Origin: Negaprion brevirostris
Taxonomy: Eukaryota
Reading direction: 5' to 3'
DNA: 64,000 nt
NCBI GenBank assembly: GCA_030324005.1
Contig: JARDVH010000084.1
Coordinates: 56,367,879 to 56,431,878 of the forward strand
The notes under the pieces were generated by a model, which had not been told where the DNA came from, did no database searches, and saw only the letters and a program-made list of their open reading frames with translations. The position numbers and the translations under genes were made by a program. Within the stretch, counting starts at the first letter, position 1; the number at the start of each line of letters is the position of its first letter. This document shows, piece by piece, positions 6,001 through 59,169 of the stretch.

Positions 6001-7039
6001 TAGAAAAAATTAACATACTAATTTATCAATTTTAAACACACAGCTTGGACAATCTAATTATCTCATCACTCAAGGTCTCCCTTGACATGGTCTACAAATT
6101 TCTATGCAGTCTGCTATATACAAATGAATATATTTAGAATGCAAAATATAAATATCTTGCAAGGATTTGTAGAATTGCTATCACTCCCATATCACTCCTA
6201 CATCCCAAATCAAAGTTTGTGCCATTACTGGAAAGATAGGCAAAAGAAATATTTCTTGGAACCATTTCAACCAGTGTCAGGGGGGCAAATAGTTTCAACA
6301 GTTCATGTGGATCAGTCTATTTAAAATTCATGGACTGTAGGAATTTATTTAAAAAGGAAACAGGATGTTCTGATCTGGAACCTGGTCCTTGTTTATCAAG
6401 ATATCACAACAAAAAGTCTGTTTTTGGAATGACTATGGACAGTTTAAAAGATAGATTCCTCACTATTTTAAAACCATGAAATGATCATTGAAATTTAGAA
6501 ATTCTCAAGTAATGTATTATGACTTAGAATGAACTCCCACAAATAATAAATCATACTTAATTGTGCAGCAACCAAACAAGCAAATTAAAGACAATTTAAA
6601 ACCAGCAATTGGATGCATTTCTTCAGACTCAAGAATGTAATAAAAATCATATTTTTAAATTTACTGCAAAATGTCACCAATTGGTAGGGAGTTGGTTCAA
6701 GGGCACTGAGAATAACAATGTATATATTCATTGTTAAGTACACCATTCAGCTGCAGTAGAGACTGGCTGGATGTAAAACGAAAAACTCAAACCCAGAATA
6801 GAGGTTCCTTGTGCTCCTTTCATTTGCCACTGCGGTCATGCAGCACTTCAAGACTTTTTCCAAATGCACTTTGGTAGGTGCTCATGTCAAAAAGGTATGT
6901 ATGTACTTAAGATCCATTGTTTTAGGATGTCCAGGGTTAATACATTTATCAATTACCTGCATCAACTGACTAGTGGTTGTCAATATGCTGATCATAAATC
7001 TGAGCTGTAACCAATAACACTTTTTCTAACTTACTACAG

Positions 7040-7701
7040 TCTAATGAGGATTTAACTTTGGAGATGGCAATAGTTAGTCAAAAGTCCACCAGCAAAATAA
7101 TCACAATCAGAGGGAAAGACAAACCATGGTTCAGGATGACCCCAATGACAATGGTACAGGTTATTAAACCAAAGATTGCCAAAGACACAAGAGACTTTAC
7201 GGAACAAAAGTTCAAGGTGCTGAAAAGCCCCACCAGCTAGAACAGTGTCCAGCAAGTACAACAGAAAGCTTTTGTTGTAAAAGAGTTAGGCAATTTGAAA
7301 TGGTGTGCAGAACTAAAGCCTCTGGATACACAGATGATCATAAAAGAATTTTTGCACACAAGGCTATTAACAAAGTAGAGGAACAATGATGTTTCCCAGG
7401 TGAGATCAAAGACCCAAGATACACTTTCTGGAATGCAAACATTTTTGTTAATGGCCAGACCACTAATTTCAAATTGGACACAGGAGCAATTGTAACAGTC
7501 CTGTGGGGTAAAGTACCATTGCTAGTAAACATGTGGCTGAAGGCAACTGAAAACCCATTATATGGTCCAGAGGACTCACACTACTAGGCACAGGCATGTT
7601 ACAAGCACAGCTCCAATGCAAGGACAAACAGAAACTGGAAACATTACATGTGATTCACAATCATCTCTTCCAAGCAAAAATGCCTGTGTTGACCTCATCA
7701 A
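7040..7701 (+). mobile_element. Gypsy-type LTR retrotransposon relic A, gag zinc-knuckle / aspartic protease part
   Basis: Translates DLTLEMAI..., CPASTTESFCCKRVRQFEMVCRTK (decayed CCHC knuckle), and VNGQTTNFKLDTGAIVTVL with catalytic DTG at 7477-7485; ends SKNACVDLIK. Confidence 0.85.
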
Positions 7702-8367
7702 GATGTGGAGATGCCAGCGTTGGACTGGGTTAAAAACACAGTAAGAAGTCTCACAGCACCAAGTTAAAGTCCAACAGGTTTATTTGGTAGCAAAAGCCAC
7801 TAGTTTTTGGAGTGCTTGCTGCTCCTTCGTCAGGCGAGTGGGAGTTCTGTTCACAAACAGGGCACATAAAGACAAACTCAATTTATAAAATAATGGTTGG
7901 AATGTGAGTCTTTACAGGTAATTAAGTCTCAAAGGTACAGACAATATGAGTGGAGACAGGGTTAAGCACAGGTTAAAGAAACGCGTAGTGTCTCCAGCCA
8001 TGACAGTTAGTGAGACTTTGCAAGCCCAGGCAAGTCGTGGGGGTGACAGATAGTGTGACATGAACCCAAGATCCCGGTTGGGGCTGTCCTCATGTGCAGA
8101 ACTTGGCTATCAGTCTCTGCTCAGCGACTCATGACATGGTGAAGGCTCTGGAGAAGGTGTCGTAGTTTCTTCGCTCTGGGGAAGTACTGGACGACAAAGA
8201 GTACTTTGTCTGCCATGTCCCTTGTTTGTCTTCTGAGGAGGTCAGTGTGGTTTTTGGCTGTGGCGCTTCGAAACTGTCAATTGATGAATTGAGCGCCATA
8301 TCCTGTTCTTATGAGGGCATCTTTCAGTGTCTGGAGGTGTCTGTTGCGATCCTCCTCATCTGAGCAG
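7702..8367 (-). mobile_element. Penelope-like element 3' part (RT C-terminus plus pseudo-LTR)
   Basis: Minus-strand peptide CSDEEDRNRHLQTLKDALIRTGYGAQ...VVQYFP; terminus gatgtggagatgccagcgttggactggg...cacagtaagaagtctcac; decayed hammerhead motif at 7796-7840. Confidence 0.85.
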
Positions 8368-8467
8368 NNNNNNNNNNNNNNNNNNNNNNNNNNNNNNNNN
8401 NNNNNNNNNNNNNNNNNNNNNNNNNNNNNNNNNNNNNNNNNNNNNNNNNNNNNNNNNNNNNNNNNNN

Positions 8468-8575
8468 CCCCTACGTATTCTATGAACGGTATGCTCTGTC
8501 TGTATAGCACGCAAGAAACAATACGTTTCACTGTGTTCCAATACATGTGACAATAATAAATCAAATCAAATCAAA
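8468..8575 (+). mobile_element. Rex1/Babar-like LINE 3' tail
   Basis: tgtctgtatagcacgcaagaaacaatac...atacatgtgacaataataaatcaaatcaaatc, same tail as ~42920-42990. Confidence 0.75.
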
Positions 8576-9905
8576 TGCTGTCACCTCCTAAATCTGTGCC
8601 TCTGCCAGATTGGCAGAACTACTCCTACCAAAGTCACAAATGACATTTGATGTGATCGTGACTGATAAACTACTTCTCCTCCTCTTTCTCAACTTGCCCA
8701 CAGCTTTGGCATAGCTAATCACATCATCCTCCTACAAAGCACCTCTGTCATCCAACTGGATGGGTCTGCACTTGGCAGGCACCAGTCATAGCCAGAGAAT
8801 CACCTGCTAATGCTTATCTTCCTGTTGCCATATTGTCACCTCTAATGTGCTCCTAGTATCTATCCTTCCTTGGCCTCCTCCTATTGTTCATCTGTATGCA
8901 GTCTCTTGACAACATTACCATAAACACAGGGCCAGTTTCCACATGTACGCTGATGATAGTAGCCCTACTTCACTGCCACCTCTTTTGATTCCACCACTGT
9001 CTTTAAGTTGGCAGAGTGCTTGACTGGCATCCAATAGAGGGAGTTCAGAAAGTGTCTCCATAAATATTGGGAAAACCAAAGCAACCCGTCTTCTTTGTAT
9101 TGGGGCACCCCAATACAAACTGTGTTTTCTAGCCACCCATACCAGCCCTTTTCCTGGCAACTGTTTGGGGCTGAATCAGTAACACATGTAACATAAGAGC
9201 AAAATGCTTCAAGCGCTGGAAATCTGCAAGAAAACAAAGACTGCTGGAAACACTTAGCACCTCAGGCTGCATCCATTCTGATGGAAGGTCATCACCCTGA
9301 CTTCTTCCTTCACTAATGCTACATGATCTGCCAAATATTTCCAGACTTTTCATAACGTTGGTGTGATAGTTGGCCCTGAGATAGCCTTCTTACAAATTAT
9401 CGGCACTAAACAATTAGCTTTGATCTCTGTAGCACTGCTTGACTCCATTCTGCCTCAGCTCATCTGCTGATGAAATCCTCATCTACATTTTTGTTGCCTC
9501 CAGACTTGACTATTCCTGCACACACCTGACTGACCTTCCATTTTTCTTATCATCCCTGAGGCCATCCAAAATCTGTTGTCTGTGTCCTTACTCACACTAG
9601 CTCCCATTCACCCATCACTTCTCTACTCCCTAACCTAGAGGTTCCTGCTTAAACAACACCTTGATTTGAAAATTCACAACTTTGTTTTCAATCCCTCCTT
9701 AATCTCAGTCCTGCCTATCTTAGTAATCTCTCCAGCTCTCACAAATCGCTTTGAGACACCTGCACTCCTGAAAAATCGGGCCTCTTGAGCATCCCATATT
9801 TTAATTGCTTTGCCACTAGTTGCCATGCCTTTGGTAGCCAAGATCCAAGGCTCTGAAATTTCCTGCAGAAACCTCTCCAGCCTCATACCTCCTCCTAAAA
9901 TTAAA
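8576..9905 (+). mobile_element. L2-clade LINE RT/3' fragment
   Basis: ttccacatgtacgctgatgat (FHMYADD), decayed LLLFLxLxxAF motif and tccagacttgactattcc (SRLDYS). Confidence 0.75.
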
Positions 9906-9914
9906 GTTTTTAAA

Positions 9915-10170
9915 AGTGTCCAGAGGGGCAATTTTCTCATACAGAGGGTGGTGAGTTTCTGGAACAAGCTGCCAGAGGTAGCAGTTGAGGTCGGTAATAT
10001 TTTGTGTTTTAAAAAGCATTTAGACAGTTACATGGGTAGGATGGGTATAGAGGGATATGGGCCAAACACAGGCAATTGGGACTAGCTTAGTGGTGAAAAG
10101 AAAAAGGATGGCATGGACAAGTTGGGTTGAAGGACCTGTTTACATGCTGTAAACCTCTACGACTCTATTG
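9915..10170 (+). mobile_element. CR1 LINE 3' end
   Basis: RGNFLIQRVVSFWNKLPEVAVEVG...FKKHLDSYM in ORF 9810-10085, ending in ctgtaaacctctacgactcta. Confidence 0.85.
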
Positions 10171-11454
10171 CGATATGCCAAGGTCAGTGACAATGACAGG
10201 ACACAGTACCTGTAAAAAAAATACAACTGTCCATTAAATAGTCTATTCCCTAAAATGGGACACATTTAAGTTGATTAAATTTCCCTGTATGGTGCACTAA
10301 CTTCAATTTTCTGTGAACCATGATGAGGGAGAGAGAGAGAGAGAGACTATTGATATTTTTGTAATAGTTAAGTCTCATTTTGCCCTCAATTCTATGCCAC
10401 TACTAGAACTGCTTTTTGGTTCTGGGGGTGGAAGAATATGGGTGCAGCCTAGTGTTTGTTTTTCTTCCTTTCCACCCTCCTGTTCCCTCAAGGTTCTCAG
10501 CAGACCAGCTGAGATTGGGAGATTTTCTGAGATGGAAGAGTGGTGCCCATAAACCCACATCCTTCAATCCGTGGCACTGGATGCTGCCAGAGATAATTGG
10601 TGGGCCAAAGAATGTTTATGTAATTCTAAGATGCTTCAGCTGCCACTTGGACAGTCTGATGGATTACTAGCTTGTAATGAGAAACTGTCTCTCCTGCTCC
10701 CTGTAATGAAATAGTTTTGATCTACATCTTCAGTATTTTTGTGAATTATTGGGCTATGCCAAAGGTTCATTGCAAATATACACTGGAGGAGAAATATATG
10801 ATACCGAAACCCCCTTTAAAATGATTCCGTTGCATTTTTAATGGACATAGTTCAATAGTGGCTTATTTATTTTAAACAATTTGGATATTTAACTCTTCAG
10901 TGATCAGAGAGGTGGAAAGGCTTTGGCCTTCTGCAATACACCAAAGTTTAAGGAAATCATTGTGTTTAGTAATTTGGTTATAGTTATATAAAGGTGAAGG
11001 GTATCATTGTAACGAATGCAAACATTGTTCAACAGAATGTCTCTTGAACTTCCAAAGTTACTGCCAGTTTCACAACATCAATGTTCTGTGGTTAATAGTG
11101 ACAGAAAATGCCACCTCTTGTAAATCCCAGGCTCAATATATCAGTCTGAAAGAAAGGAAAGCAGCAAAGCAAATTCTTCTTGGCTTCTTTTTGAAGCAGA
11201 CATAGGAAATAATCATCTATTCAGAAGCCACAGCTCGATTGAATAAGACTTGCATTCACTCCACGAATGAAAAGGCGGTCTTCAAATGGAAGCTTTTTAT
11301 GTCTATTGCTTGTCTACCACGATCTGAGATTTGACCCCTGGGATTCACATCATCATTGCTTATTTACTGATTAGCAGTTTGGGAATTTTGAAGAGGAGAG
11401 ATTTTATAACCAAGATGGGGAGGATACAGAGAATGTTTCATTCCTCCATGGGGT

Positions 11455-11575
11455 TACTGGGCTGAATGCTATCATCCCGTCATACAGAGCGCAGGGCTGG
11501 AAAATGCGGAGAGCGATTCAAAAGTCCATTGACTTCGGCAGGAGCGAAAAATCCCATCAGTGGGACATTCCACCA
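11455..11575. mobile_element. Short non-autonomous element (MITE-like), related copy at ~22770-22900
   Basis: Shared gctgaat.., ggaaaat and aaagt(t)ccattgacYtcgg blocks between the two copies, with imperfect inverted ends. Confidence 0.45.
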
Positions 11576-12669
11576 TTATTTCAGAATCCAGGAGATGAGG
11601 CTTTGATGCAGGAAATACACCAGCCATTAACATTTCATGCTGCAAGAGTTATGAAGACATTGCCTGCCTTTTGGCATTACTAAAGGCCAGAACCAGGCTT
11701 AGGTTGAAGCAAAAAGACTGAAAGATTTGTTGCACCAGCAACAGCATTGCTTTTTGGTCAACTTTCTTTATATCAAACTGCAAGCCGCAACTATGCAAAA
11801 CTTGGGAAGAAAGAACCAAAATTGCAGAACTGTGTTATCAGGCCCAGATTCTAATTAACGCTATCTGTTGATTTGTTAAATCAGGGTAACAGCTAGATTT
11901 GAAATTCTGCATTTTCTAATGGAAGGATGGAATTCTGTAGTTATCCTGGATAATGAAAATGTGCCTGTGAAATGTGTCTTTTTTGGGGAGAAGAAGACCT
12001 TGATCCCCACGGGATCTCCTGGCACACTAAGAATAAAGAAAATTATAGCACAGGAACAGGCACTTTGGTCCACCAAGCCTGCACTAGTTGGTGCTTTGTT
12101 GGGAAGGTTTGAGTTGCTTCAAAGTCACAGTGAGATTGTGGGAGGTGGGGATGGTTCACAAGCATGAAGGTTATTTTCAGCAGAATGAAAAAAAATGATA
12201 ATTTATCTTGAGATGTTTAATTTACTTCACTACCATGCCTTTTAAATTTACAAGGCTGAAACTTTCCATTTATTAGTTTCAATCCATTTCCAATCTTCTG
12301 CTTGAGTGATGGTGATACACTGTGAAATTGAGATTTTCACCAATCCAGTGTTACTCTTGCATACAGGATGCTTTCAGAAGTTACAAGAATGATGTCTTTG
12401 TTAGTTTTTGTCATATTATTTGAGCTGAATTAGGAACTATTTTGTTATGTACATGTATACATAAGTGTCCAGCATGCCACATCACTCAGTACTGCATTAG
12501 TCTGTGCACCAAACTAACAGTGTATCATTCCTGTAGCACAAGGATATCTGGGAAAAATACACTAAATGTCCGCATCAGTATTCTTGCCCAAAAGGTTTAT
12601 TTCAAATTTCTGGAAACCACAAGACATAATATGCTAGCAATGGTGGGATTTGAACCAACTCCTGGAGGG

Positions 12670-13012
12670 TTTGGCACTTGTCTTTTCCGATCAGGGCTTT
12701 TTTGTACATCAGGGTATACTGATCCCCAATTGAGCTGATTTGCCAGCTTTTCATCCATTTCTTTTAAATTTACACTTGCTGGCTTCAATTCTCAATCTCT
12801 TTTAAGAAATCATCAACAGACTCAAACTAATTCCTGCCTCAGGCTGTGAAATTTACACCCCATGGTTTTTCCTCTGGCTGTAGAGCTGTGCTAAATTTCT
12901 CAAAGTTTTTGTCTGGACTTTTACTGACATCCCCATTAATTTCCCAGCTATTGAAAAGATGTAAATCTTTCTCTCCTATCCACAAAAGGATGGGGCTGAC
13001 CCTTTTCTCTTT
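12670..13012 (-). mobile_element. Gypsy-type relic B, gag N-terminal region
   Basis: KEKRVSPILLWIGEKDLHLFNSWEI...FEKFSTALQP, then ..VDDFLKRLRIEASKCKF / KEMDEKL..QL..G..YPDVQK resemble Gypsy gag. Confidence 0.7.
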
Positions 13013-13172
13013 GATGTGGAGATGCCTGCATTGGACTGGGGTAAACACAGTAAGAAGTCTCATAACACCAGATTAAAGTCCAATAGGTTTATTTGCTGGT
13101 GAAAGCTAGTGGCTCTTGCTACCAAATAAGCCTGTTGGACTTTAACCTGGTGTTGTGAGACTTCTTACTGTG
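13013..13172. mobile_element. Penelope pseudo-LTR pair in inverted (hairpin) arrangement
   Basis: cacagtaagaagtctcataacaccagattaaagtccaataggtttatttg (from ~13046) is the near reverse complement of caaataagcctgttggactttaacctggtgttgtgagacttcttactgtg (to 13172). Confidence 0.88.
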
Positions 13173-13185
13173 TTGACCTCATCAA

Positions 13186-14516
13186 AACAGTGGAAGATAT
13201 AAATGAACTGACATTCATTGATTGTTGTAAACTGAAGCCTCTCAAACTGTCCAAATGCTCCAATGACCTGGACTGGGACTTAAATGCTGATCTGAGGCCA
13301 ACAATCCAGCCTTTTTCCAAGAAGGTGACTAAGGGACAGAGAGTAAACTTGTTCTTATGAAGTAGTAAGGAACCAATTCAACCAATGAATACCTGAGTGT
13401 GGCCATGATCATTCAATCTCTGTGTGACAACTGGGAAGCTGGAAGACAAAACTTAGGCAACAGAAAAAACTGTTATAATGCCACATTCAATCAGTGGTGG
13501 CCCCTTTGATAAGTGCATCCACGCAGACCCATCCACCAAAAGTGGTAATCAAGAATGGAAGCAATCAGACAAGTCCAAAACTAGAGACAGAACCAAACCA
13601 GGCAATGTCCCTCTCTTCCATATTGGAGGAAACTGATTTTCCTGCTACAGCGAAGTTAGCAGAAGTTGTGGGACAGCAAGGTACTAATTGTTTGCCTTCT
13701 TCATAGCTTTCTATTTTGCCTCCACAAGGAAACAAAGAGGAGTATCAAGTCCAGATCCAGATAAAAGAGTCTTCCATTGTCCATTTTGGAAAACCAGATG
13801 TAGAGCATCAAACAACGTGCGCGTCTGTGTAATATTTAATCATGTTTAGCTTATATTTGAATTGGCCGTAATGAAGACTTTCATTTCATGCATACCAGTT
13901 TATATTATCCGATCTGAACTGGGGCAAATCAGATCTGCTCCAATCCACGCCACAGGGACTGATGATCTGCCTGCCAATATAATCAATGCTTGATAAGCTG
14001 CATTGCATCGCACATCGCTTAAGGAGTTCACGTGCGCTATACACCAATCGTATCCACATACGACTCCATATCTGTAACACATCACAATCTACAGCAGTTG
14101 AATTTATGTTCATCATGAAGAATTTGAGCGCACCAAATACTGCAACTCTTACCAAAGACCAACAAAGTCAAACTAAAGTAGTTCAAATAGAGACTATTTT
14201 CCAAACCTCAAGAGCATGATCAGGAAGAATCATGAAACCGCCTGGCCAATTAAATCTTTGAAATCAGAGACGTGGGGAGAAGTGGTAATGTAAATATAAA
14301 TTTTAAGAACACTTTGATAAAGACTAACAGTACATTCTACAGAGTGTCATAGAGAGGTGGCATGTTTAGGAGTCTAGAGGGAGAAACTCCTGACTTAGAC
14401 GGAGTTGTATCTGTAGTCCTGTACATCTGTAAATAGTTGTGTTCACACAATAAACCAGTTATTGTTCAGACATATCTACGTCTCCTCAACCGTTCCTTAG
14501 CCAATCATAATCAACA
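13186..14516 (+). mobile_element. Gypsy relic A continued: deleted pol end, purine tract and 3' LTR-like segment
   Basis: Continues the protease frame (..DLIK|TVEDINE). SGRIMKPPGQLNL* at ~14219-14261 resembles Gypsy pol C-termini; ggggagaag purine tract, then an AATAAA-containing segment ending ...caaca. Confidence 0.7.
13815..14131. repeat. Local duplication, copy 1 (~320 bp)
   Basis: Aligns in direct orientation with 15658-15996 (catgtttagcttatatt...gttgaatttatgttcatcatga). Confidence 0.95.
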
Positions 14517-15657
14517 CATAATGGAATCAATTTTAGATGGCAGATGACCATTAGGAAAAACAAAGAACAAAAACAGACAAAAATCCATGAGCAGAAAAAT
14601 TGGAATCCTTGCTAACACACGACAACGTTATGTATTGAGAAAGTCAGCTTTGATCCTAAAGGAAACAGGAGAGCCTCCAGTAAAGAAACAACTCTACTAG
14701 TCAGGCAATATAATTTTGCTCTATAAATGTGTTTTTCCCTGTATTAACTGCACCACACCAGGGCTGACAGAAACTTGCACTCCAAGTGGAAGGCCAAATT
14801 TATGCAAGCAAATTAATTCGACAGGGGTTTTCTCACACATTTATTCTAAAGAATTCTAAAGGATGAGTTGATCAGCTCACTCACACCTGCCCTTAAATAT
14901 TATTCATTTTACAATCTCCCATGACACTCTCCACAAACTTAAGTGGTGCGGACCTCCTTTCTCTTGTCTCAATCACGAACACAATATTTCCTAATTCTGT
15001 CCCTTTCTGTTCAAAACAGAATAGATTTGATTAGTTCTAGACTGCGAAAACAATTGCTTTAAAATTTATCCCATAGCTTCCATAAACACTTCTGAAGTAT
15101 GAACATATTAAATAGTTGACCATTTTTAATGAACATTTCCTCTAGCATCAGTATTTCTCCCTCCTTAATAAACAAACATTAACCATTCATCAGGGACAGC
15201 TAGAAACAAAAGATAAGATTAAACCAAGACATCTACTATCTGCTTCCCTGAATCCAGTTAGAGGGAAACAGTACAATTTGACCATCGTGACAGCGTAGGG
15301 TGATTACAACTGAGTTTGATCCTATTGTAAACCAACATCCAGAAACGCACTCTTCAGCACAGTTCGTTAGACTAGGAAAAGGAGGCTAAGCTGATTTTTC
15401 CCTCTGATCTCTCTCCTCACACCTGGTCACAAAATCTCTTCAACAATTCTCTCTTTAAAGAGATCTTGGGTTGTCACCTCCTACTCTTTTTTGAATACCT
15501 GTCTGATGCCAAAAACATCTCTTTTCTGCCATCCCTCCCCCATGAGGCCATGTCTGGATATGTCACTTATTAACGTGCTATACAAGTTGCTCTGACCACT
15601 ATAACTTCCCACTGCACCACATTTGATCTACCTGCTGACTTGTCCGTGTGAACAATG

Positions 15658-15996
15658 ACGTGTGTGTATGCGCACGCACGTGTGTAATATCTAAACCTCA
15701 TGTTTAGCTTATATTGGAATTGGCCATAATGAAGACTTTCATTTCACGCATACCAGTTTACATTATCCAATCTGAACTGGGGCAAATCAGATCTGCTCCA
15801 ATCCAACTCCACAGGGACTGACAATCCATCTGCCTGCCAATATAATCAATGCTTGATAAGCTGCAGTGCATCGCACACCGCTTAAAGCGTTCACATGTGC
15901 TATGCACCAGTCGCCTCCACATACAACTCCATACCTGTAAAACACACCACAATCTACAGCAGTTGAATTTATGTTCATCATGAGGAATTTGAGTGC
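15658..15996. repeat. Local duplication, copy 2 (probable donor)
   Basis: Aligns with 13815-14131 and lies in unique-looking sequence. Confidence 0.95.
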
Positions 15997-18019
15997 CTAC
16001 TTTCAAAAAGTAATATTACTATGTGGTACACAAGCAAGCCAGGGCTGGACAACTACCCCAACAGAATAGGATGAAGATATATGCTGTTTAATAGTGGGTT
16101 TGAACTGTGATCAGCTCATTTTACAAGAACGGTGTGCACACATACAATCCATGGGCAATGGATTGCAAGATTCATGTTTTTTTAAACCATCCCTGCCTGC
16201 AAGATGCCCACCAACTTGCGCATTATATGCCTGCCAAATGACAACTACTTTGTTTTTAACCCTGGCCCTGTTGAGATTTTACTGGGCATGACTTCAAACC
16301 TCATATTCGACGAATCATACAACATAGCAAATACATTGCCATTTTATGATCACAGCAAAGAAACTTGACATTAAATGGATCTTTATGGATGTTAAGATTA
16401 AGACAGTTAAATGTTACCATGAGCAGATATGAAATAAAACGCTAAACGCATCACTACCATCCATCCTTTGGTGCAGAGGTATGGGAGAAATTCAAAGCAC
16501 TTGCACTGCATTGTAATGGAACATTGTCAGGAAGGGTGGAGAAGGGCAGATGGGTTAAGAGGACAGGATGCAGTGTGCATCAAGGGAAAATATATTTGCT
16601 GCCATATTTTTGAAATGTAATTTTTTCCAAAAAACACAACAGGCAGATATATTCAATGGGCTCACCCTCAAATATCATTTTAATGAATAAATTCTCAAAT
16701 TAATGTAAATTGTCAAAGAGTAGGGGGAAAAAAAAATCGCTCAATCCTCAAAATTGTTACACATACGAAGAAATCAAAGTCTTGATCCTCAGTAATAAAG
16801 TAGACATGTTTTTCTGAAAATACAAGGTGGCATTCTTTCAACTTTATTGACAACACTTGAGGCTGCAAAGCTGGTGCTGAACACACTGCAAACTGCTGTT
16901 CAGTCCAATTCCCTTGGCAACCCCAATGGCCCTGCTCATGCCCTTTTAGCAAAAAGCAGAACCAGATGACAGATTGACTACCAAGTAGCTGCATGTGTCA
17001 GCAAGATGGAATGAACAATTCACTGAACAGTCTAGTGGCAACAGCCCCACTACATCATGACAAAAATCCACATTCCTCACCTCTGAGGAATTATCTTCAT
17101 TTGCCAATTGTCCCAGCATAGCAATCATATATACAAATAGCAACCACCCTTTCCCTGCCTGTCCACACAACCCCCAGCCATCCCCACTACTGGATTCACA
17201 CTGAGCAAACAAAACACATGTAGATTAATACACCAAAATATTATCTCAAAATATATTCTAATTTCCAAGGTCAACTAAACAAGTTGAGATCCTAGTTTAC
17301 TTTTAGAAGATTAAATGCCAGCTAAAAAATTAAGATTTTCCAACACATCTGGATACCACTGGAGCTCAGTTGCTTTGTTCAAGTTGTGTATAANNNNNNN
17401 NNNNNNNNNNNNNNNNNNNNNNNNNNNNNNNNNNNNNNNNNNNNNNNNNNNNNNNNNNNNNNNNNNNNNNNNNNNNNNNNNNNNNNNNNNNNNAGTTGTG
17501 TATAAACTAGGCCTATGCAAGATCTTTCAATACCTTACCAACGTGTATTGGTATTCTCCTGGTTTACATATCTCAAATTCTATCCCTGGTCCTTGCTGAA
17601 CTTGCCAATCCTGGCCGTGATGATGATACAATTGCTGTCATACTCCTCAACTGCTATCCAACAGCCTTGCTCGCAAGTTCACAAATGGATACACCAAAGA
17701 GGGGAAGATCTGGCTCACTTATCACAGCTCCTATAGTTGAATAATCACTGCCAAAGTTCACATTTCAGGAATGGTCAACATTTCCTCCACAATAGGTCAG
17801 CTGCTTAATGCAATCAACACGTAAACCATGAAACTAGAAAGAGTCCAAATTTTATCTCTAATGTATTCCAAATTAACAATTCCTACCAGGAGCAATGGAA
17901 GGGGTACTACAACTGTCCTCGGTACCCACTCCTGGCTGCAATGCAGCAACCATGAAAACTGGAGTTCTGTTTGTGCAGTTATGACTGGATTGAGTTTGCT
18001 TTTGATGTTGCCTATTCAT

Positions 18020-27224: not shown

Positions 27225-27510
27225 ACATGGTAGCGTATTGGTATTGTCGCTGGACGAGTAATCTAGAGACACAGGGCAATGCTCTGGGGACCCAAATTCC
27301 AATCCCCACCATGGCAAATAGTGAAATTTGCATTCAATAAAAATCTGGAATTAAAAGTCTAATGATGACAATTACTGATTGTTGGAAAAACCCATCTGGC
27401 TCACTAATGTCCTTTAGGGAGTAGAAATGCCATCCTTACCTGGTCTGATCTACATGTGACTCCAGACCTACAGCAATGTGGTTGACTCACATGGGCAATA
27501 AACGCTGGAA
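27225..27510 (+). mobile_element. tRNA-derived SINE (tail shared with LINE at 3310-4560)
   Basis: A/B-box-like head, cccatctggctcactaatgtcctttaggga...ccttacctggtctg...acatgtgactccagacc body and gggcaataaa tail. Confidence 0.75.
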
Positions 27511-27652
27511 GAAGTCTCACAACGCCAGGTTAAAGTCCAACCAATTTATTTGACAGTTAACTCACAAGCTTTCAGGGTTTGCCCCTTCACCAGGCGAATG
27601 GAGAGTTCTGGCCTCAGACAGAGCATATAACAGCACCGACTGTTTACAGATT
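27511..27652 (-). mobile_element. Penelope pseudo-LTR fragment running into a gap
   Basis: aagaagtctcacaacgccaggttaaagtccaac... plus a decayed hammerhead motif at 27560-27598. Confidence 0.8.
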
Positions 27653-29204: not shown

Positions 29205-29945
29205 ATCATGGTAAATACTCCAACTTCTAAATCAAAGTGTTGTGGATTCAAGCCACACTCTCGGACTTTAGCTCATAATCAAGGCTGACACTCCAGTGAA
29301 GCATTGAGGGAATACTGTACGGCTAGATGTGTAGTCTTCTGATGACAGGTGAGACATTAAACTAAGGGCCACTGGTTACTAGCTCCACTGGTTCAAGAAA
29401 ATGTTGAAATGCAGTTGAGTCACACAAAGAGGAAGGAGTATTCCACCTCTATACCACCACCAAAAGCTTAATGGACACATCATTGTTTGTGGATTTTAAA
29501 AATTCATTCATGGGACATGGGCATCACTGGCTGGCCAGCATTTACTGCCCATCCCTAGTTGCGTGAAGGCAATTTAGAGTCAACCACATTGCTGTGGCTC
29601 TGGAGTCACATGTAGACCAGACCAGGTAAGGATGGCAGATTTCCTTCCCTGATTGATATTAGTGAACCAGATGGGTGTTTCTGACAATTGACAATGGTTC
29701 ATGGTCATCAGTAGATTCTTAATTCCAGATATTTATCAAATTCAAATTCCACCATCTGCTGTAGCAGGATTCAAACCCGGCTCCCCAGAACCTTAGCTGA
29801 GTTCCTGGATTAAAAGTCTAGGATGAAACCACTAGGCCATCGCCTACCCATGGCTATCAATAAAATGACTATCACACTTTCCCAAATGCCAATAAATGTA
29901 CATCAAAATAGTTGCCTTTCAGAATGTGAGGTGTGAAGTGCAGTG
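29205..29945 (+). mobile_element. Deu-domain (SacSINE1-like) SINE interrupted by a minus-strand tRNA SINE at ~29500-29845
   Basis: ggattcaagccacactc...aggctgacactccagtg...gagacattaaactaaggg; the nested element is the reverse complement of the 27225 family. Confidence 0.65.
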
Positions 29946-34120: not shown

Positions 34121-35069
34121 CTTAAGCTGGAGCTGCACTTGGGTCCCAATTTTGTGGTCTGAGAGAAAGCAAAACAGGAAATCTCTTGCAACGGTAATTT
34201 GATACACACACAAGCAGATGTATACAAACCATTAGAAATTTGCATAAAACATCGAGTTGTGCTCGCAATACTAACTCATAACCATTAGCTCAGTAGCATA
34301 ACAAGGTCCTGTACAGTACTTCTGGATGCTCAATAAAGGCAATCATTTAAGAAATAAAACAGAAAATTCTCAAAAGTGCTCATAACTTCATTGCAGTGGT
34401 AATGTAAGCCTAATTGTGACACTAATAAATAAACATTTTAAACAAGCTTAAGCAGGTCTTGCAGCAACAACAGATGGAAATAGAATCAACGTTGAAGGTC
34501 CATTTCCAGTCAGACTTCTCATGAATGGTCCTGGAAACAGGTCACAGACCTGAAACGTTTACTCTGCTTCTCTCTCCATCGATGCAGCGTGATTTGCTGA
34601 GTATTTCCAGCATTTTCTGTTTTACTTCAGGCTTCCAACATTCACAATATTTTGCTCTCAAATCACTCAAAGAACAGGAGAATGCAGGCACCCTACTCAG
34701 CTGTAGACATAGATGCCCTAGAATGTAATCTACTTAAAATTAGCCATGCATGATACAAACCTATATACACTTCGGGCAAAAAGTGCCACCAATACAATAT
34801 TACATTCAATTACAAAGTATCCAATCCATTCAGAATCATTGGAAAAGCACAATTTTACAGCTCTGACTATCTGTTTTTAGGTACTTCATTCACAGCAGAA
34901 TCTCAAGGTTCCAGTTTTCTACGATTGCCCAAAGACTGTGAAGCTATGTAGGGATGTCTTCTGATCTTCCTATAGAATCACTGGTGATAGGATAGTGAAG
35001 GTAACAACATTATATAAACTCTGGTTAAGGATGCTGTTCAGCAGTGGCCACGAACACTGAGTTGACCCA

Positions 35070-35585: not shown

Positions 35586-36305
35586 CTGTGCAGAGGGACC
35601 TGGGGGTCCTTGTGCATGAATCACAAAAACTCAGTTTGGAGATGCAGCAGGTGATCAAGGAGGCAAATGGAATATTGGCCTTTATCGCGACAGGGATGGA
35701 GTATAAAAGCAGGGGGGTCTTGCTGCAATTGTACAAGGTACTGGTGAGGCCGCACCTAGAGTACTGTGTGCAATTTTGGTCCCCTTATTTATGAAAGGAT
35801 ATATTAGCTTGTGAGGGGGTGCAGAGAAGATTCACTAGGTTGATTCTGGAGGTGAAGAGGTTAGCTTACGAGGAGAGATTGAGTAGACTGGGGCTGTACT
35901 CATTGAAGTTTAGAAGGCTGAGGGGAGATCTTATAGAGACATATAAGATAATGAAGGGGCTAGACAGGGTAGAGGCACAGAGATTATTTCCACTTAAATG
36001 GAAACAAGAACTACAGGGCACAGCCTCAAAATAAGGGTGAGTCAATTTAGAACAGAGTTGAGGAGGAACTTCTCCCTGAGGGTGGTGAATCTTTGGAATT
36101 CTCTGCCCATTGAAACAGTGGAGGCTACCTCATTAAACGTGTTTAAGTCACAGGTAGATAGATTTTTGACCAATAAAGGAATTAAGGGTTATGGGGAGCA
36201 GGCGGGTAAGTGGAANNNNNNNNNNNNNNNNNNNNNNNNNNNNNNNNNNNNNNNNNNNNNNNNNNNNNNNNNNNNNNNNNNNNNNNNNNTATCTCTTATG
36301 TTCTT
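35586..36305 (+). mobile_element. Relatively young 5'-truncated CR1 LINE
   Basis: QRDLGVLVHES...LYKVLVRPHLEYCVQFWSPYL / QRRFTRLI...RRLRGDLIETYKIMKGLDRV / RTTGHSLKI...WNSLP, with tcttatgttcttat tail. Confidence 0.93.
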
Positions 36306-36745
36306 ATATATACTTCCTGTGCTCCTGAGCCATTCACACATCTGGGTAACAACTTGAGACTTCAATCAATTAACCTTTTGTAAAAAAGGATTCCAAGGAG
36401 CATGAGGTTAATTGGAGCACCATAATAGCAAACTCACCAAGAGGATCCAAGCCAATGTCTTCCAGGTCGATGTCCCTCAATCCCACAAAAACAATGTATT
36501 TCAACAATAAGCTGCTGAGACTCGGACAACATTTTATCAACCTAATGGCTTTTGTTTTTGCTCAAAATTGACAAGTCTTGTCAGTAACTGCCAACTTTTG
36601 CTTTCAAAGCTATTCACCTCAGGAGTTATTCTATTACAAAGAAACACATTTCCATGAAAGTTACCCTCTTTAGGCAGCTGATATTTACAGCAGACTAAAC
36701 AGAATTTGGCAAAATTTGCAGTTAAGCCGTGATTTACATAGAACC

Positions 36746-37121
36746 ACAGTAAGAAGTCTCCCAACACCAGGTTAAAGTCCAACAGGTTTATTTTGAATCA
36801 CCATCTTTTGGAGCGCTGCTCCTTAATCAGGTAAGTGATTCCACCGGTTGGACTTTAACCNNNNNNNNNNNNNNNNNNNNNNNNNNNNNNNNNNNNNNNN
36901 NNNNNNNNNNNNNNNNNNNNNNNNNNNNNNNNNNNNNNNNNNNNNNNNNNNNNNNNNNNNCCAGGTTAAAGTCCAACAGGTTTATTTTGAATCCCCAGCT
37001 TTCGGAGTGCTGCTCCTTCATTAGGTGACCTGACTCACCTGATGAAGGAACAGCGCTCCGAAAGCTTGTGATTCCAATTCTTACTGTGCCCACCCCAGTC
37101 CAACACCAGCATCTGCACACG
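36746..37121. mobile_element. Penelope pseudo-LTR cluster (tandem and inverted) containing hammerhead motifs
   Basis: Two ccaggttaaagtccaacaggtttattttgaatc copies, then an inverted arm ending cttactgtgcccaccccagtccaacaccagcatct. Confidence 0.88.
37032..37074 (+). ncRNA. Minimal (Penelope-type) hammerhead ribozyme motif, core intact
   Basis: TCAC-CTGATGA-A-GGAAC-AGC-GCTCC-GAAA-GCTT-GTGA: stem I TCAC/GTGA, CUGAUGA core 37039-37045, stem II with one mismatch, GAAA 37060-37063, palindromic AAGCTT in place of stem III. Confidence 0.65.
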
Positions 37122-39427: not shown

Positions 39428-39512
39428 ATAATCATGGAAGGCTTTTGCTTCACTTGAATGTTCACATGTGTCTCGTCTTTCAGGAGCTGCACAGTAAAGG
39501 TCCCAAAATACA
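39428..39512 (-). CDS. SSBP3: SSBP3 coding exon 4 ([C][28 protein letters not shown], 85 nt; end of LUFS domain)
   Basis: ttcttcctcccccag|T GTA TTT TGG GAC ... GAT TAT|gtgagt, in phase with exon 3 (TG|T = Cys). RRDTCEH plus the MFAK start favours SSBP3 over SSBP2/SSBP4. No later exon was found, so intron 4 extends past position 1. Confidence 0.96.
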
Positions 39513-41659
39513 CTGGGGGAGGAAGAAAAATGTTCTGTTACTATTTCACCTATTCTCAATGCAAAAAATAATATACTCCAGGCATGCACATGCAAAACAC
39601 AGTGTTCCGTTAACAAAGATCATTAGGTTGCAATCCACTGTGCTCAAGAGAATACAGGGCTCTCAATGATAAACTAAATACAGGATGTATACTGGTAGCA
39701 AAACCACAAAAACAAGTAGTTCATAAATTCAAAACTTTAAAAAGCAGCAGAATGAAAAGACAATTCAGTTTATAATATTTACAACAAACTGACAGGTAAA
39801 AAAGCAATATAACTTAGGCTGAGTGACAATCAAATAAATGGATGCTCATATTAGTTGACTGCAAATAGTAACTCCAAGGAAACAAGTTACAATTCTAACC
39901 CACAGCTTCTCTCAAGGCATCTGCTCATTCATATTGTGAGCTGCACATTCACAAATCCCCAGGTTCCGCCCCAGGCCTGTACCTGCAGGTGCTCAACTTA
40001 AACATTTACCTGACTGAACCCGTAAATTTGCAAACTAGTCAGTCATTATTCCATATAATTAGTGTCCCGTTGACAGCTCTCGAACTTGTACTATATATAA
40101 TTCACAGCCATCAAAATGAAATCCTGCCTTATCTTAAGCAGACCTACTTGTAAGAGATCCTAATTACTAGCAATTAGGGACAGATTATCGTAAACATGAT
40201 TAAAAAAACTGATTTCCACTCTCCACCTTTTTGTCAGAAATTCCAACCCTCTCCGAATCCACTACAGGAAGCGCACATTCATATTGAGCTACAACTCCAA
40301 AGGCACCAGCATCTCCTGAAAGACTAAACAATCCATCTGAACAGTAACAATAAGCTATTCCACCAAATGTGTCTCAGCAAAACCCTTCATAAAACCTCAG
40401 TTTATCCTTAGTTACTTCACAAACACACAAATTAGGTAAACATAGAAGACAGCCATTTCGCCATTCGGTTCATTCACAAAGCCTACAATCTTCTTTGTGT
40501 CTGCCTCTTGACCGACTCCCATGCCATCACCACTTAGGTTTGCCTCCACACTTCCAGTGGGAGTTTATGCTTAACAATCAGTAACTCTAGCTGGTTCTAC
40601 TGCTCCCTAGCCTGAGGACAACTATAGCACCCCATCACTTGGGCCAAGATTTGCAGAAACGCAAATTAAACCTGATCCATATGGCTCAATCTCACTCCAG
40701 ACAGTGCATCAAGGAGGTTAGATGTACTAATCATTAAAAATATTAAACATTTTTTAAACAACTTGCTCCCAGGCCTGTTGCCTTTCAGCCTGCTCATAGG
40801 TTATAGATCATTAGGCAAACCTTACCATCTTCATTCAACCCCTCTCTAAAACATTGTCATTGCACTCTGCATGAGTGCTTAGCCTATCATTTTTGTTTTG
40901 TAGACTTAATAAGAACCTTTGTATCAAACCCTTCCAGTGCAAGTAAAATATGATCATGTGATTCTCACAATTATGCAGAATGCATAATAACAGATTCAAT
41001 TAAGTCCAAAGAGATTTTAAAATCTATGTAGAAATCCCACAGCTTCTAAACATTGCTGGGGGTGTCTAAAGCGCAGTTTTAAGTCAATCACTCTTCTAAA
41101 ACAATAAATGGATTGATCAGTAGCAAGTTCAATACATCTTCTGACTTCTAACAATAGATGAACCCGTACAATACTCATTAGTACAACGCTCAAACAGCCA
41201 AATTAGTCACTAGATGTCACAATCCTTGTTCCACTGAAGACTCAAGCTTTTTAACAACATATACAAGAATCAAAGACCCTGAAGTCTGTAATTGAGGTGA
41301 ACAAACTGTCACTATAGATTCTCCAAAAAAAAGACAAACTGCTGATAAGGTGTCACAAAAACGCTCTTTTAAAATGATGCACTTTGCACAAATAGAAAAC
41401 TCCTGTATCAACTTTCACCATCATTACTATAGCCCCTCAAAGGAGAGGCTTTTAGTAAAAAGAGAGAGAAAATGGTAACTAGCACAGATTAAAATAGAAT
41501 TTTGAGTCCTCTCCAACAGTTTACCAAGTAGCAGACTGGTAGTGTGCCAGTTCAGTTTTCAGCCAACTGAAGAAAACAGTATACGAGGACCAGAATCTCA
41601 AACCCAACACTAGGGTCATGGTTTATCAGGCAGCAGTATTCCCCATGCTACTATATACA

Positions 41660-43450
41660 AATATATGAATTGGGAGCAGTAGGCCATTTGGCACATCATG
41701 CCTGCTCCACTATTCAATAGGATCATGGGTGGACTGATTGTGGCATCAACTCCACATTCCGCCTACCCTCGATAATATTTGCCTCTCCTCATCCTGCCTC
41801 CACTGCTCACTGAGGGAGATAATTCCAAAGTTCACAACCTCAAGAAAACATTTCTCATGTCCACCTTAAATCGTCCCATAGTTCTAGTCTCTCTGAAAAG
41901 GGCTACATCCTTTCAGCATCCACCCTGTCAAGTTCCCAAAAAATCTTGAATCTTTCAATAAAATACAGCTACAGCTCAACCTTTAAAACCATTATTCCTA
42001 CAAGACTCATCTCCAGACTTTGTGACCTGAGGCTCAACTCATCCCTCTGGAACTTGATCCTAGGCTTCCAAATCGCACTCAGCAAGGATAGACAACGACA
42101 CCTCCTCCACAATCATCCTCTCAAAACCAGTGCCCCACAAGGCTGTGTCCTCAGCCCTTACACACCTTTGACTGTCTGTCCAAATTTCCCTCCAACTCAA
42201 TTTTCAAGTTTGCTGATGACACTACCACTGTGGGTCGGATCTCAAATAAAGGCGAGACAGGGTACAGGAAAGAGATAGAGGATCTGGCATGATGACAATA
42301 ATGTCTCCCTCAATGTCAACAAAACGAAGGAGATAGTCATCAACTTCAGGAAGCAGAGTAGAGAGCATGCCCCTGTCTACGTCAATGGGGATGAAGTAGA
42401 AATGGCCGAGAGCTTCAAGTTTGAAGGTGTCCAGATCCCCAACTTGTCCGGGTCCCTCTATTCAGATACTATAGTTAAGAAAGCACACCAACGCCTCTAC
42501 TTCCTCAGGAGATTAAGGAGATTTCACTACAACTCTCACCAACTTCTACGGATGCACCATAGAAAGCATTCTTTCTGGTTGTATCACAGCTTGGTATGGC
42601 TCCAACTCTGCCCAAGATTGCAAGAAACTACAAAGGGTCATGAATGAAGCCTAGTCCATCACTCAGACCAGCCTCCCATCCATTGACACTGTCTACACAT
42701 CCCGCTGCCTTGGAAAAACAGCCAGTACCCCATATTCTATTCCACCTTCTTCCATCAGGAAGATACAATCACATACCAATCGACTCAAAAACAGCTTCTT
42801 CCCTCCTGCCATCAGTCTTTTGAATGGATCTAACTTGCATTAAGGTGATCTTTCTCTATACCCTAGCTATGACCGTAACACTACAGTCTTCACTCATTCT
42901 TTTCCATGTACACTATGCTTTGTCTGTATAGTGTGCAAATAATACTTTTTACTATACACTAATACATGTGACAATAATAAATCAAATCTAATCAACTCAA
43001 AATCACCACTTAATTCTTACAAACTCCAACGGATACAGGCCCAGCCCATCCAACCTTTCCTCATAAGATAATCTCCTTCATCCCCAGTCAAGTGAACCTT
43101 CTCTGAACTGCCCTTAACACATTTATATCCTTTCTTAAATAAAGCGACCAAACTGTACACAATACCCTACATGTGGTCTCACCAACGCCAACTAAATTCC
43201 ATTTGCCCGCCTAATCATTTGCTGTAATTGCAAACTAACTTTCTGATCTGCGTACCAGGACAGGCATATCCTTCTTTATATCTCAGTTCTGCAACCTCTT
43301 TTCATTTAACTAACATGCTGCTTTTCTTTTGTTCTTGCCACAGTGGATTCATTCACCTTTTCCCACATTCAACTCCCATCTGCCAATTTTTTGCCCACTC
43401 ACTTATCTATGCCCCTTGGAAACTCAATGTTCTCTTCACAACCTTCTTTC
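41660..43450 (-). mobile_element. CR1 LINE (minus) split by the Rex1-like insertion at ~41965-42990
   Basis: agcagtaggccatttgg..cctgctccactattcaataggatcatgg tail at the left; continues after 43000 with aaactccaac..ccaacctttcctcataag..gaccaaactgtacacaata. Confidence 0.75.
41965..42990 (+). mobile_element. Rex1/Babar-like LINE, 5' truncated
   Basis: YSSTFKTIIPTRLISRLCDL..SLWNLIL, APQGCVLSP, KFADDTTTVGRI, KKAHQRLYFLRRLRRF; (aatca)n tail. Confidence 0.88.
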
Positions 43451-46462: not shown

Positions 46463-46524
46463 CACCACCAGGAGTGTAAAAACCCAGGAGGTTCTCCTAA
46501 TGTAATATTTTTCTCCCATCGTAT
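46463..46524 (-). CDS. SSBP3: SSBP3 coding exon 3 ([20 protein letters not shown][C], 62 nt)
   Basis: ttttgcag|ATA CGA TGG GAG AAA AAT ATT ACA TTA GGA GAA CCT CCT GGG TTT TTA CAC TCC TGG TGG TG|gtaagt; read directly from the sequence (too short for the ORF track). Confidence 0.97.
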
Positions 46525-46762: not shown

Positions 46763-46835
46763 CTCTGAGAGGAAGGTCTGTGCAGATTTCTGTGCCCCGA
46801 CATGAAGCAGATATTCGTACACGTACAGAGCCAAC
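46763..46835 (-). CDS. SSBP3: SSBP3 coding exon 2 ([24 protein letters not shown], 73 nt; LisH motif)
   Basis: Polypyrimidine tract then cgcag|G TTG GCT CTG ... TCA GAG|gtaact. Phase is compatible with exon 1 (AA|G = Lys) and the peptide is the SSBP-family LisH segment. Confidence 0.97.
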
Positions 46836-57149: not shown

Positions 57150-57900
57150 CCTCAGCCCAGATTCCAAATTCGGACTCGACCCCAAACCCCAGCCCCTGCT
57201 CTGAACCCAGCTTCAACCCCAACCCTGATCCCACCACCAGTGCCAGACCCAAGCCCTGATCCCCCAACCTCCAACAACAGCCCTAACCCCAAACCCAACC
57301 TCAACCTCAGCCCTCNNNNNNNNNNNNNNNNNNNNNNNNNNNNNNNNNNNNNNNNNNNNNNNNNNNNNNNNNNNNNNNNNNNNNNNNNNNNNNNNNNNNN
57401 NNNNNNNNNNNNNNNCAACTCCCAACAACAGCCCTGACCCCAAACCCAACCCCAGCCCAGATGCCAGACCCAAGCCTGACCCCCCAACTTCAATTCCAGT
57501 CCTGACCCGAACCCCAGCCCTGATGCCAGACCCTAGCCCACATCCCTGATCCCTGCCCCAACCCTAACCCCAGCACCAGCCATGATACCAGCTTCGATTC
57601 CCGAACCTAGCCCCCATTGCTGAGCCCAACCCTGATCCTGGCCCCAGTCCCAAGCCCAGACCCCACCCACAACTCCAGCCCCAACTCTGACCTCAGCCCC
57701 GATTCCTAATCCCAAACCTGACCCCAGTCCTGACCAAGGCCCCAGCCCCTAGCCCCTAGCCCCCACCCCGACCCTAACCCCTGCCCCAATCCCTGACCCC
57801 AGACCATGACCCCAGCCCCAATTCAAGATTTTGACACAATCCTAATCTGCAGCCTGAACCCAGTCCAGGCTCATACCCCTTCTCTCTGACCCCCTCTACC
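57150..57900. repeat. Degenerate C-rich hexamer minisatellite (CCCYRA / CCCCAG-like)
   Basis: Runs of accccaaaccccagccc, ccctgacccc and ccctaacccc units; contains an N gap. Confidence 0.85.
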
Positions 57901-57934
57901 AGCCTAGGCCTCTTCACCCATGGCAGCTTTAGTA

Positions 57935-59110: not shown

Positions 59111-59169
59111 CAGCAGGGGCTGGTTTTGTAGTGAGAGGGAGTATCTGCTCTGGTAGACCTGAAGTCACT

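Follow-up and report, generated by a model that had tools for sequence, protein, structure and literature searches.

A composite insertion bounded by Penelope ends in a dead Gypsy element of the shark Negaprion brevirostris, possibly a case of Penelope-mediated transduction

How several kilobases of old, unrelated DNA came to lie between Penelope ends inside a dead Gypsy element is the question raised by a locus of Negaprion brevirostris, which we analyzed within a 64,000-nt window (GCA_030324005.1, contig JARDVH010000084.1, 56,367,879-56,431,878, forward strand). The insertion block occupies positions 7684-13185 of this window, downstream of three exons that belong to a gene of the SSBP family, and comprises approximately 5.37 kb of sequenced DNA and an assembly gap of 100 N (8368-8467), one of 16 gaps in the window, which conceals the junction between the Penelope body and the cargo. 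A run of 100 N is the usual assembly marker for a gap of unspecified size; the size of about 5.5 kb given in the first-pass annotation is, because of this gap, a minimum. It is well supported that the block came in as a single unit, with the target-site duplication (TSD) formed at the Penelope ends. We consider it probable, if by no means certain, that the block arose by Penelope-mediated transduction in trans of genomic DNA, with at least 4.5 kb of old unrelated cargo. An RNA route via the Penelope RT is the likeliest, but DNA-level exchange or a gap-collapsed duplication yields identical sequence.

The outer limits of the block are marked by an 18-nt direct repeat (7684-7701 and 13168-13185, both on the forward strand), as the first-pass annotation had reported. 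The two copies are identical, cannot be extended in either direction, and are absent elsewhere on both strands of the window. Approximately 0.04 such 18-nt pairs are expected in the window by chance, and two fixed junctions would agree over even 11 nt with a probability of about 6e-7. Among the 14 exact repeats of at least 18 nt listed for the window without its 56-60 kb satellite region, this 18-mer alone lies outside longer repeat families. Because it is exact, unique, and located on both outer junctions of Penelope-like sequence, the 18-mer represents a TSD. The first 7 nt of the right copy also match pLTR sequence, so the true TSD is 11-18 bp; the overlap of about 5 nt and the duplication of 13-18 bp proposed earlier are corrected accordingly.

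The target was a Gypsy element whose left arm (6933-7701, plus strand) contains the middle of gag, the zinc-knuckle region and the protease, interrupted by frameshifts and stops. A HMMER-only search (phmmer) gave 55 matches, the top homolog possessing RT, RNase H, and integrase domains, and a word-indexed search with the host Gypsy matched none of 48. With tblastn, the homolog alignments over the left arm break into five pieces spanning frame changes, and the scores of protease and gag were each reached by none of 200 background segments. The insertion site is the end of the protease region, and it had been claimed that the block splits a protease frame there; that frame was already broken. 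The proposed rejoined frame, SKNACVDLIK-TVEDINE, holds for a short distance: approximately five codons to the right of the block (13186-13200, plus strand) continue the protease-RT linker motif (p = 0.0034 against 124,124 six-frame 5-mers; p = 0.71 for the left junction in the same test), but these are followed by non-Gypsy DNA. No RT match was found in the next 500 nt, where a frameshift-aware search with a Gypsy RT profile scored at background (equaled by 181-292 of 300 segments; controls passed). The C-terminus of the host polyprotein (ending at 14258), a purine tract, and an LTR-like segment lie at 14160-14520 (plus strand); this match was reached by none of 200 background segments and extends to the profile end, with a tblastn E of 0.039 for the C-terminus at about 14160-14258 and the LTR assigned by eye only. 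As both Gypsy arms have identical orientation, a simple inversion was rejected.

Three pLTR copies are found in the block. Copy A (7702-7860, minus strand) carries a tail at 7702-7734 and a decayed minimal-hammerhead motif, and copy B (13013-13106, minus strand), with a tail at 13013-13043, has the same orientation and terminates at the identical nucleotide. The two are 85% identical over 96 nt and correspond to the same-orientation Penelope 3' termini reported previously at 7702 and 13013. Copy C (13102-13174, plus strand) is inverted and head-to-head with B; it is 93% identical to A over 73 nt and corresponds to the inverted pLTR earlier placed at about 13100-13172. The tail measures 33 nt in A and 31 nt in B and is absent in C; assigning the overlap to the target would lengthen the tail by up to 7 nt. 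Direct pLTRs with an adjoining inverted pLTR are a feature of EN+ Penelope-like elements (PLEs), and a tail of 30-40 nt limited to one end is likewise a PLE feature; both are present here. The arms of B and C overlap by 5 nt (13102-13106) and form a 162-nt palindrome (z = -15.6; reached by 0/200 shuffles), the axis of which coincides with the predicted hammerhead cut (13108). Judged by eye against PMC4209133, the hammerhead core of A lies near 7833 with a mutated GAAA box, and the motif is half present in C and intact at about 37040; Rfam gave no matches, and single-strand folds were non-significant. Across 52 compared positions, A and C differ at 3, B and C at 4, and A and B at 5, too few sites for dating. 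A-to-I editing was rejected as the source of the changes that cluster close to the axis of the hairpin, as these fall on both strands and their number is tiny.

The Penelope body next to A (7861-8367, minus strand) consists of the post-RT helical region joined to the ORF end at 8129/8128, as determined by protein matches. In the search with this body 17 of 73 candidates scored, the best with 80% identity to shark proteins, some of which contain RVT_1, and a PDB search returned three chance matches only; the RT core falls outside the sequenced part. The body aligns to homolog residues 135-213 and then 372-399, with about 158 codons missing, and the GIY-YIG endonuclease of the homolog (a domain match below the curated cutoff) falls in the missing part. 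Thus, the ORF is of PLE type but its C-terminal GIY-YIG endonuclease was deleted, making copy A non-autonomous and dependent on help in trans.

Between A and B lie 4.5 kb of layered, CpG-depleted cargo. A Rex1/Babar-like LINE 3' tail (8468-8575, plus strand) is 79% identical to 42902-42995, and the ORF upstream of the latter matches PF09004, which we take to indicate Rex1. This was the sole curated-level Pfam match (42.3-42.6 kb; others were sub-cutoff) in a scan of 91 of the 136 open frames of at least 72 aa, including all 14 cargo frames; none of 30 six-frame reads of 6001-15000 matched Pfam, and an Rfam scan of the whole 64-kb window gave no matches. The Rex1-like tail retains CpG (o/e 1.2, on 4 CpG), looks young, and may have arrived later than the block. 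A decayed LINE RT fragment follows (8576-9900, plus strand), with a YADD motif and many stops in translation, presumably L2-like by its motifs; a short repeat that also occurs at about 34570-34660 interrupts it between about 9181 and 9350. Searches with this piece matched none of 1349 database candidates and nothing in the PDB, and so provide no family-level age estimate. The LINE 3' end at 9900-10170 (plus strand), which we assume from motifs to be CR1-like, matches a LINE C-terminus at 36037-36213 (E 1e-10). The names Rex1, L2, and CR1 in the first-pass annotation depend in part on motifs. The segment 10171-12650 is single copy in the window and contains no Pfam domain or strong candidate exon; a splice-site scan found no host exon in the cargo. 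The second Gypsy gag noted previously is real: this fragment (12744-13012, minus strand) aligns to residues 43-115 of its homolog (E 2.7e-5, for a subject of 713 nt) with a score reached by 0/200 background segments. It begins approximately 40 residues into the protein, exactly at the Penelope terminus 13013, and neither an LTR nor a gag start was seen; a search of the window for the front part of gag found none, at a sensitivity too low to count. Because B ends on the same nucleotide as A and abuts mid-gag, its junction was made elsewhere, by insertion into a gag the front of which is absent here.

The balance of CpG to TpG+CpA (30 vs 706 in the cargo, 15 vs 113 in the Penelope body) shows the cargo to be more depleted (p = 0.002), although CpG content also reflects the starting level of each repeat family. 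Taken piece by piece against A, depletion is evident in the L2-like piece (p = 0.003), the gag (p = 0.04), and the 10171-12650 segment (p = 0.011), and is non-significant in the CR1-like piece (p = 0.37). By its CpG content the cargo, apart from the CR1-like piece and the young Rex1-like tail, is thus older-looking than the Penelope ends, and the mid-gag junction shows that it is not nested in them. The strand that would have been transcribed carries three AATAAA and three ATTAAA hexamers, which weighs against the transduction account.

In L1 3' transduction and twin priming, flanking DNA is copied along with the element, an inverted 5' piece is joined by microhomology, and a TSD is formed. 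The shark block resembles this in its apparently co-copied flanking DNA, its inverted piece at a microhomology, and its TSD. Unlike L1, it lacks poly(A) and ends in a pLTR tail, its cargo is located between two pLTRs, on the 5' side of the priming element A, and its inverted arm repeats the pLTR instead of continuing the template; it is not an L1-type 3' transduction (for the size limits of which see PMC6431247). The same anatomy has been published for Pen3a_Av/NRPS of Adineta vaga, described in PMC3846280 as having about 4 kb of cargo, two direct pLTRs and one inverted pLTR, and an outer TSD, and as being mobilized in trans, as proposed here. Likewise, the shark block contains non-PLE DNA between direct pLTRs, an inverted pLTR, and a TSD around the unit. 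The same source describes non-coding DNA captured between solo pLTRs and accompanied by TSDs, and the transduction behavior itself is thus already known for Penelope, in rotifers; the first-pass annotation had put it forward without naming a precedent. The shark locus differs from Pen3a_Av/NRPS in its vertebrate host, in its cargo of old repeats and other DNA in which no gene was found, in keeping 0.5 kb of Penelope body, and in a TSD of 11-18 rather than 8 bp; also, the rotifer case is backed by an empty allele, and the 64-kb shark window contains no donor copy of the cargo. No vertebrate case of Penelope-carried cargo was found in the literature searched, which covered few subscription journals.

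Ordinary Penelope/Poseidon insertions (Pen2a_Av, PMC3846280; PMC8557442) share with the block the direct pLTRs, the adjoining inverted pLTR, a short TSD, a one-end tail of 31 bp, and a palindrome at the inverted junction, but in the shark it is Gypsy gag rather than an ORF start that follows the upstream pLTR, and foreign kilobases replace most of the ORF. The in vitro behavior of PAc, a Poseidon element of Anolis carolinensis (PMC11167929), also fits the anatomy here, with two RT starts bounding the tail and both strands cut and extended, although the PAc work was without cargo. The PAc hammerhead cuts 26 nt past the start codon, an identical count being read in the intact motif at about 37040, and the distance from terminus to start-codon equivalent is 111-118 nt in PAc and 129 nt in A, which has small insertions.

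We infer that the donor locus would have lain elsewhere and contained, several kilobases apart, two identically oriented Penelope ends belonging to one subfamily: A, which lacked its endonuclease, and B, which had earlier inserted into a Gypsy gag. In favor of this account, A, B, and C share subfamily positions distinct from the copies at 36.7-37.1 kb. A transcript would have run from B across the old intervening DNA into A, where Penelope protein acting in trans may have bound the pLTR and nicked both strands of the dead Gypsy target 11-18 bp apart. According to PMC3846280, pLTRs suffice in cis to mobilize cargo, and according to PMC11167929, both strands are cleaved and extended from two RT start sites. 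Synthesis of cDNA would begin at two internal sites bounding the tail: a long cDNA, starting at the tail end (7702), would copy A, the cargo, and B, while on the opposite strand a short cDNA, starting at the tail-less site (about 13174) and aided by a primer-template match of up to 7 nt, would copy the pLTR only. The two would then be joined head-to-head via their common 5 nt near the hammerhead cut site, cleavage at which is reported to be dispensable for insertion in vitro (PMC11167929). The position of the axis at this cut would equally fit a later deletion of the palindrome center between two 5-nt repeats. Counting against the RNA route, the unit may be much longer than an RT product, because the junction of the A body with the cargo lies inside the gap.

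The same junctions are predicted if a Penelope insertion (A to C, with its TSD) came first and the cargo entered later at the DNA level via Penelope homology, either through non-allelic gene conversion, the donor having a Penelope on each side, or from a DNA circle with one Penelope. A and C are the closest pair (3/52) and share a short segment in which B differs at 4 of 6 positions, and recombination is invoked for some solo pLTRs in PMC3846280. However, the exchange would be needed within about 90 nt of B, which matches A or C exactly over 19-20 nt at most, the difference between A-C and A-B is too small to carry meaning, and for the RNA route an empty allele has validated one case; we regard this two-step history as rather doubtful. 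The pLTR differences do not discriminate between RNA and DNA routes. A recent local tandem duplication by unequal crossing-over with a downstream Penelope, collapsed by the assembler and with one Gypsy right arm hidden in the gap, would also contain both observed junctions, and the gap lies exactly at the expected hidden position, in a window with many gaps. The cargo is present only once in the window, where the B flank also lacks a partner repeat of at least 11 nt; moreover, the Penelopes nearby are either more divergent or of another subfamily, making such a duplication distinctly unlikely.

Assembly error would take the form of a chimera, with the cargo contig joined to the Gypsy right arm via the B/C palindrome, or of a mis-join at the gap. 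Palindromes and Penelope tandems are described as breaking short-read assemblies (PMC8557442), and the two other Penelope loci in the window likewise run into gaps. We nevertheless consider an artifact very improbable: the TSD links both sides of the gap to one site, independently of scaffolding, and B, with private changes along its whole length, shares no exact stretch longer than 20 nt with any of the six window copies compared. Least probable, and largely refuted, is serial nesting, in which LINEs and Gypsy landed later inside an inserted Penelope tandem array. The young-looking Rex1-like tail is possibly such a later arrival, but the cargo looks older than A and has a layered insertion history, the LTR-less gag starts mid-gene at an exact Penelope terminus in a junction made elsewhere, about 2.4 kb of the remaining cargo has no Penelope match, and the cargo pieces have no Penelope sequence between them. 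The earlier claim that the block moved as one unit is thus borne out, and Penelope-mediated transduction stands as the likeliest account, although DNA routes predict the same sequence as the RNA route proposed here.

The locus itself is probably neutral, being old repeat DNA within a dead Gypsy. If the RNA route is true, it would mean that pLTRs direct the capture of host DNA in a vertebrate as well as in a rotifer, and it would provide a genomic footprint fitting the two-start-site, two-strand mechanism observed in vitro. Chromosome-level shark genomes can easily be searched for the pattern of tail, cargo, tail, inverted tail-less copy, and TSD, which makes the rate of Penelope-driven duplication directly testable. 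More speculatively, and we think this unlikely to hold as stated, any two same-orientation Penelope ends a few kilobases apart in sharks may form a mobilizable cassette, its 5' end set by the hammerhead cut or promoter and its 3' end by the tail RT start, with multi-kilobase duplications as a routine outcome. This locus would then be the first vertebrate example within the literature searched and, as no more than 3 nt separate the end of the long arm from the predicted cut, would provide genomic evidence for hammerhead cutting of pLTRs in vivo, and Penelope would be a routine, unrecognized source of multi-kilobase interspersed duplications in a vertebrate lineage.

The Penelope-bounded insert is flanked by an exact 18-nt direct repeat (7684-7701 and 13168-13185) that is unique on both strands and cannot be extended. 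About 0.04 such 18-mer pairs are expected by chance in the window, and even 11 matching nucleotides at two fixed junctions have a chance probability of ~6e-7. On the left, Penelope sequence starts at the base directly after the repeat; on the right, repeat and Penelope pLTR overlap by 7 nt at the start of the repeat, so the target-site duplication (TSD) is 11-18 bp. The 18-bp repeat reported in the first-pass annotation is thus exact and unique, but its duplication of 13-18 bp is revised by this overlap. The sequenced insert is ~5.37 kb, and because a 100-N gap lies inside it, the earlier size of ~5.5 kb holds as a minimum only. Elsewhere, at 17382-17505, identical 11-12 nt flank a 100-N gap on both sides, a hint that few or no bases are really missing there. 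Because gaps of this sort differ, this offers no guide to the size of the gap at 8368.

The insert contains three pLTR copies. A (7702 to about 7860) and B (13013-13106), both on the minus strand with tails of 33 and 31 nt, respectively, have an identical terminal nucleotide, and C (13102-13174, plus strand) is tail-less. A runs on into an ORF remnant lacking ~158 codons, among them the GIY-YIG domain. B and C pair as a strong hairpin (z -15.6, 0/200 shuffles), and the 5 nt common to both arms (13102-13106) adjoin the predicted hammerhead cut at 13108. This candidate hammerhead, identified by eye against PMC4209133, has a mutated core in A and no match in Rfam. Just before the hairpin axis (13096-13101), B is unlike A and C at four of six positions, mostly through transitions and with G-U pairing kept; these changes may mark a variant of the subfamily or be filler from the junction.

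Read from the left, the non-Penelope cargo between the A body and B comprises a Rex1-like tail, an L2-like RT remnant broken by a short repeat, a CR1-like end (L2 and CR1 being the names we presume for these LINE pieces), ~2.4 kb without family assignment, and a minus-strand Gypsy gag fragment. The gag starts ~40 residues into its gene, right at the terminus of B, with no LTR and with its front part absent from this locus. Native tandems have the Penelope ORF after the pLTR, according to PMC3846280; the presence of gag beside B thus marks an earlier insertion of B into gag. CpG depletion is stronger in the cargo than in A overall (p=0.002), with p=0.37 for the CR1-like piece and a CpG-rich Rex1-like tail. 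The cargo has no second copy within the window, and searches of it for domains and strong exons gave none. Together with the mid-gag junction and the CpG contrast, this makes serial nesting, which the first-pass annotation had set against its own reading, unlikely.

The left flank of the insert is a Gypsy gag-protease remnant, as indicated by 55 homolog matches and the domain content of the best match, and its alignment to homologs falls into five pieces with frame changes between them. Scored separately, the first five codons of the right flank fit the motif that comes next in homologs (borne by 15/55; p=0.014, 0.0034 and 0.0048 for four, five and six residues); the same scoring at the left junction gave p about 0.7. 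Past these codons no RT match was found, 181-292 of 300 background segments scoring equally well. The C-terminus of the Gypsy polyprotein then returns, ending at 14258 (0/200 background); beyond it lie a purine tract and a stretch recognized by eye as LTR-like. Judged from this motif and C-terminus, the flanks are one Gypsy in one orientation, and by its sequence this element is long dead with its middle lost. The proposed splitting of a Gypsy protease frame is borne out as to the single element, but the frame was already broken, with no RT match on the right. A 316-nt direct duplicate (13826-14131 and 15681-15996, 89% identity) has its first copy inside this Gypsy, in ~0.9 kb of non-Gypsy DNA that stands in place of RT, RNase H and integrase. 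The pair may reflect an earlier capture of DNA from nearby, or both may be copies of some unknown repeat. Upstream of the Gypsy, decayed DNA at about 6300-6900 includes a stretch that we take to resemble a hAT transposase C-terminus.

The window DNA is shark, judging from the best matches of the Penelope fragment (17/73 candidates score, the best being Mustelus, Scyliorhinus and Heptranchias proteins, with up to 80% identity). The window lies in a minus-strand SSBP2/3/4-type gene, the family name we presume for candidate exons found by splice scan at 46763-46835 and 46463-46524 (both minus). A third exon of this type (about 39430-39515, minus) matches SSBP2 in PDB (E 4e-14); the insert lies ~26 kb downstream, probably within the intron that follows, and a motif search gave no SSBP-gene exon further on. 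Within the insert, Penelope has the same sense strand as the gene. At 36739-37119 lies another Penelope structure, from a different subfamily. Its ends are inverted and one of them is tailed, its hammerhead core looks intact, one of its pLTRs has a 42-nt-scale deletion, and it includes a 100-N gap; no TSD was seen by eye. A more divergent tail-less Penelope end (27492-27652) runs into a 741-N gap and is flanked by a different repeat in inverted arms (27314-27488 and 29577-29759). Two neighbouring short-period satellites, with units of about 6/12 and 18 nt and with gaps, occupy about 57170-59120.

According to PMC11167929, both strands of the target are cut and extended by a Poseidon protein, its cDNA starts at two internal sites bounding the tail, and hammerhead cleavage is dispensable in vitro. 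This two-strand, two-start-site mechanism fits the insert, which is tailed at one side and ends opposite in an inverted pLTR with no tail. As priming would be internal to the pLTR, we infer that any transcript ending in a pLTR could be copied with everything upstream, and one running from B through the cargo to A would yield the order seen. We lean towards mobilization of the cargo through such a transcript. Against this RNA route we count the six poly(A)-type hexamers that the cargo carries on its transcribed strand and the concealment of the A-body/cargo junction in the gap. It is suggestive that the hairpin axis lies at the predicted hammerhead cut; a palindrome-centre deletion between two 5-nt repeats accounts for this equally.

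The same visible sequence is predicted by an ordinary Penelope insertion followed by exchange through Penelope homology, which we consider rather unlikely, and by a collapsed tandem duplication, which seems less probable still; pLTR differences of 3, 4 and 5 of 52 carry no signal discriminating between routes. An assembly chimera at the B/C palindrome is very improbable, as no exact match between B and the six copies compared is longer than 20 nt. The Penelope-mediated transduction put forward in the first-pass annotation accordingly fits the anatomy and has a precedent in PMC3846280, but shares its predictions with these other routes.

That precedent is the mobilization of an NRPS gene, where the surrounding anatomy is as here, the TSD measures 8 bp and an empty allele is described; non-coding captures likewise appear in that paper, and PMC6431247 gives the NRPS cargo size as 4 kb. 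The available part of bioRxiv 10.64898/2026.07.22.740005 has no match to "transduc" or "captur", and no vertebrate example was found in the literature searched, where most subscription papers fell outside. The structure described here is real, and it is a new member of a kind that is already known.
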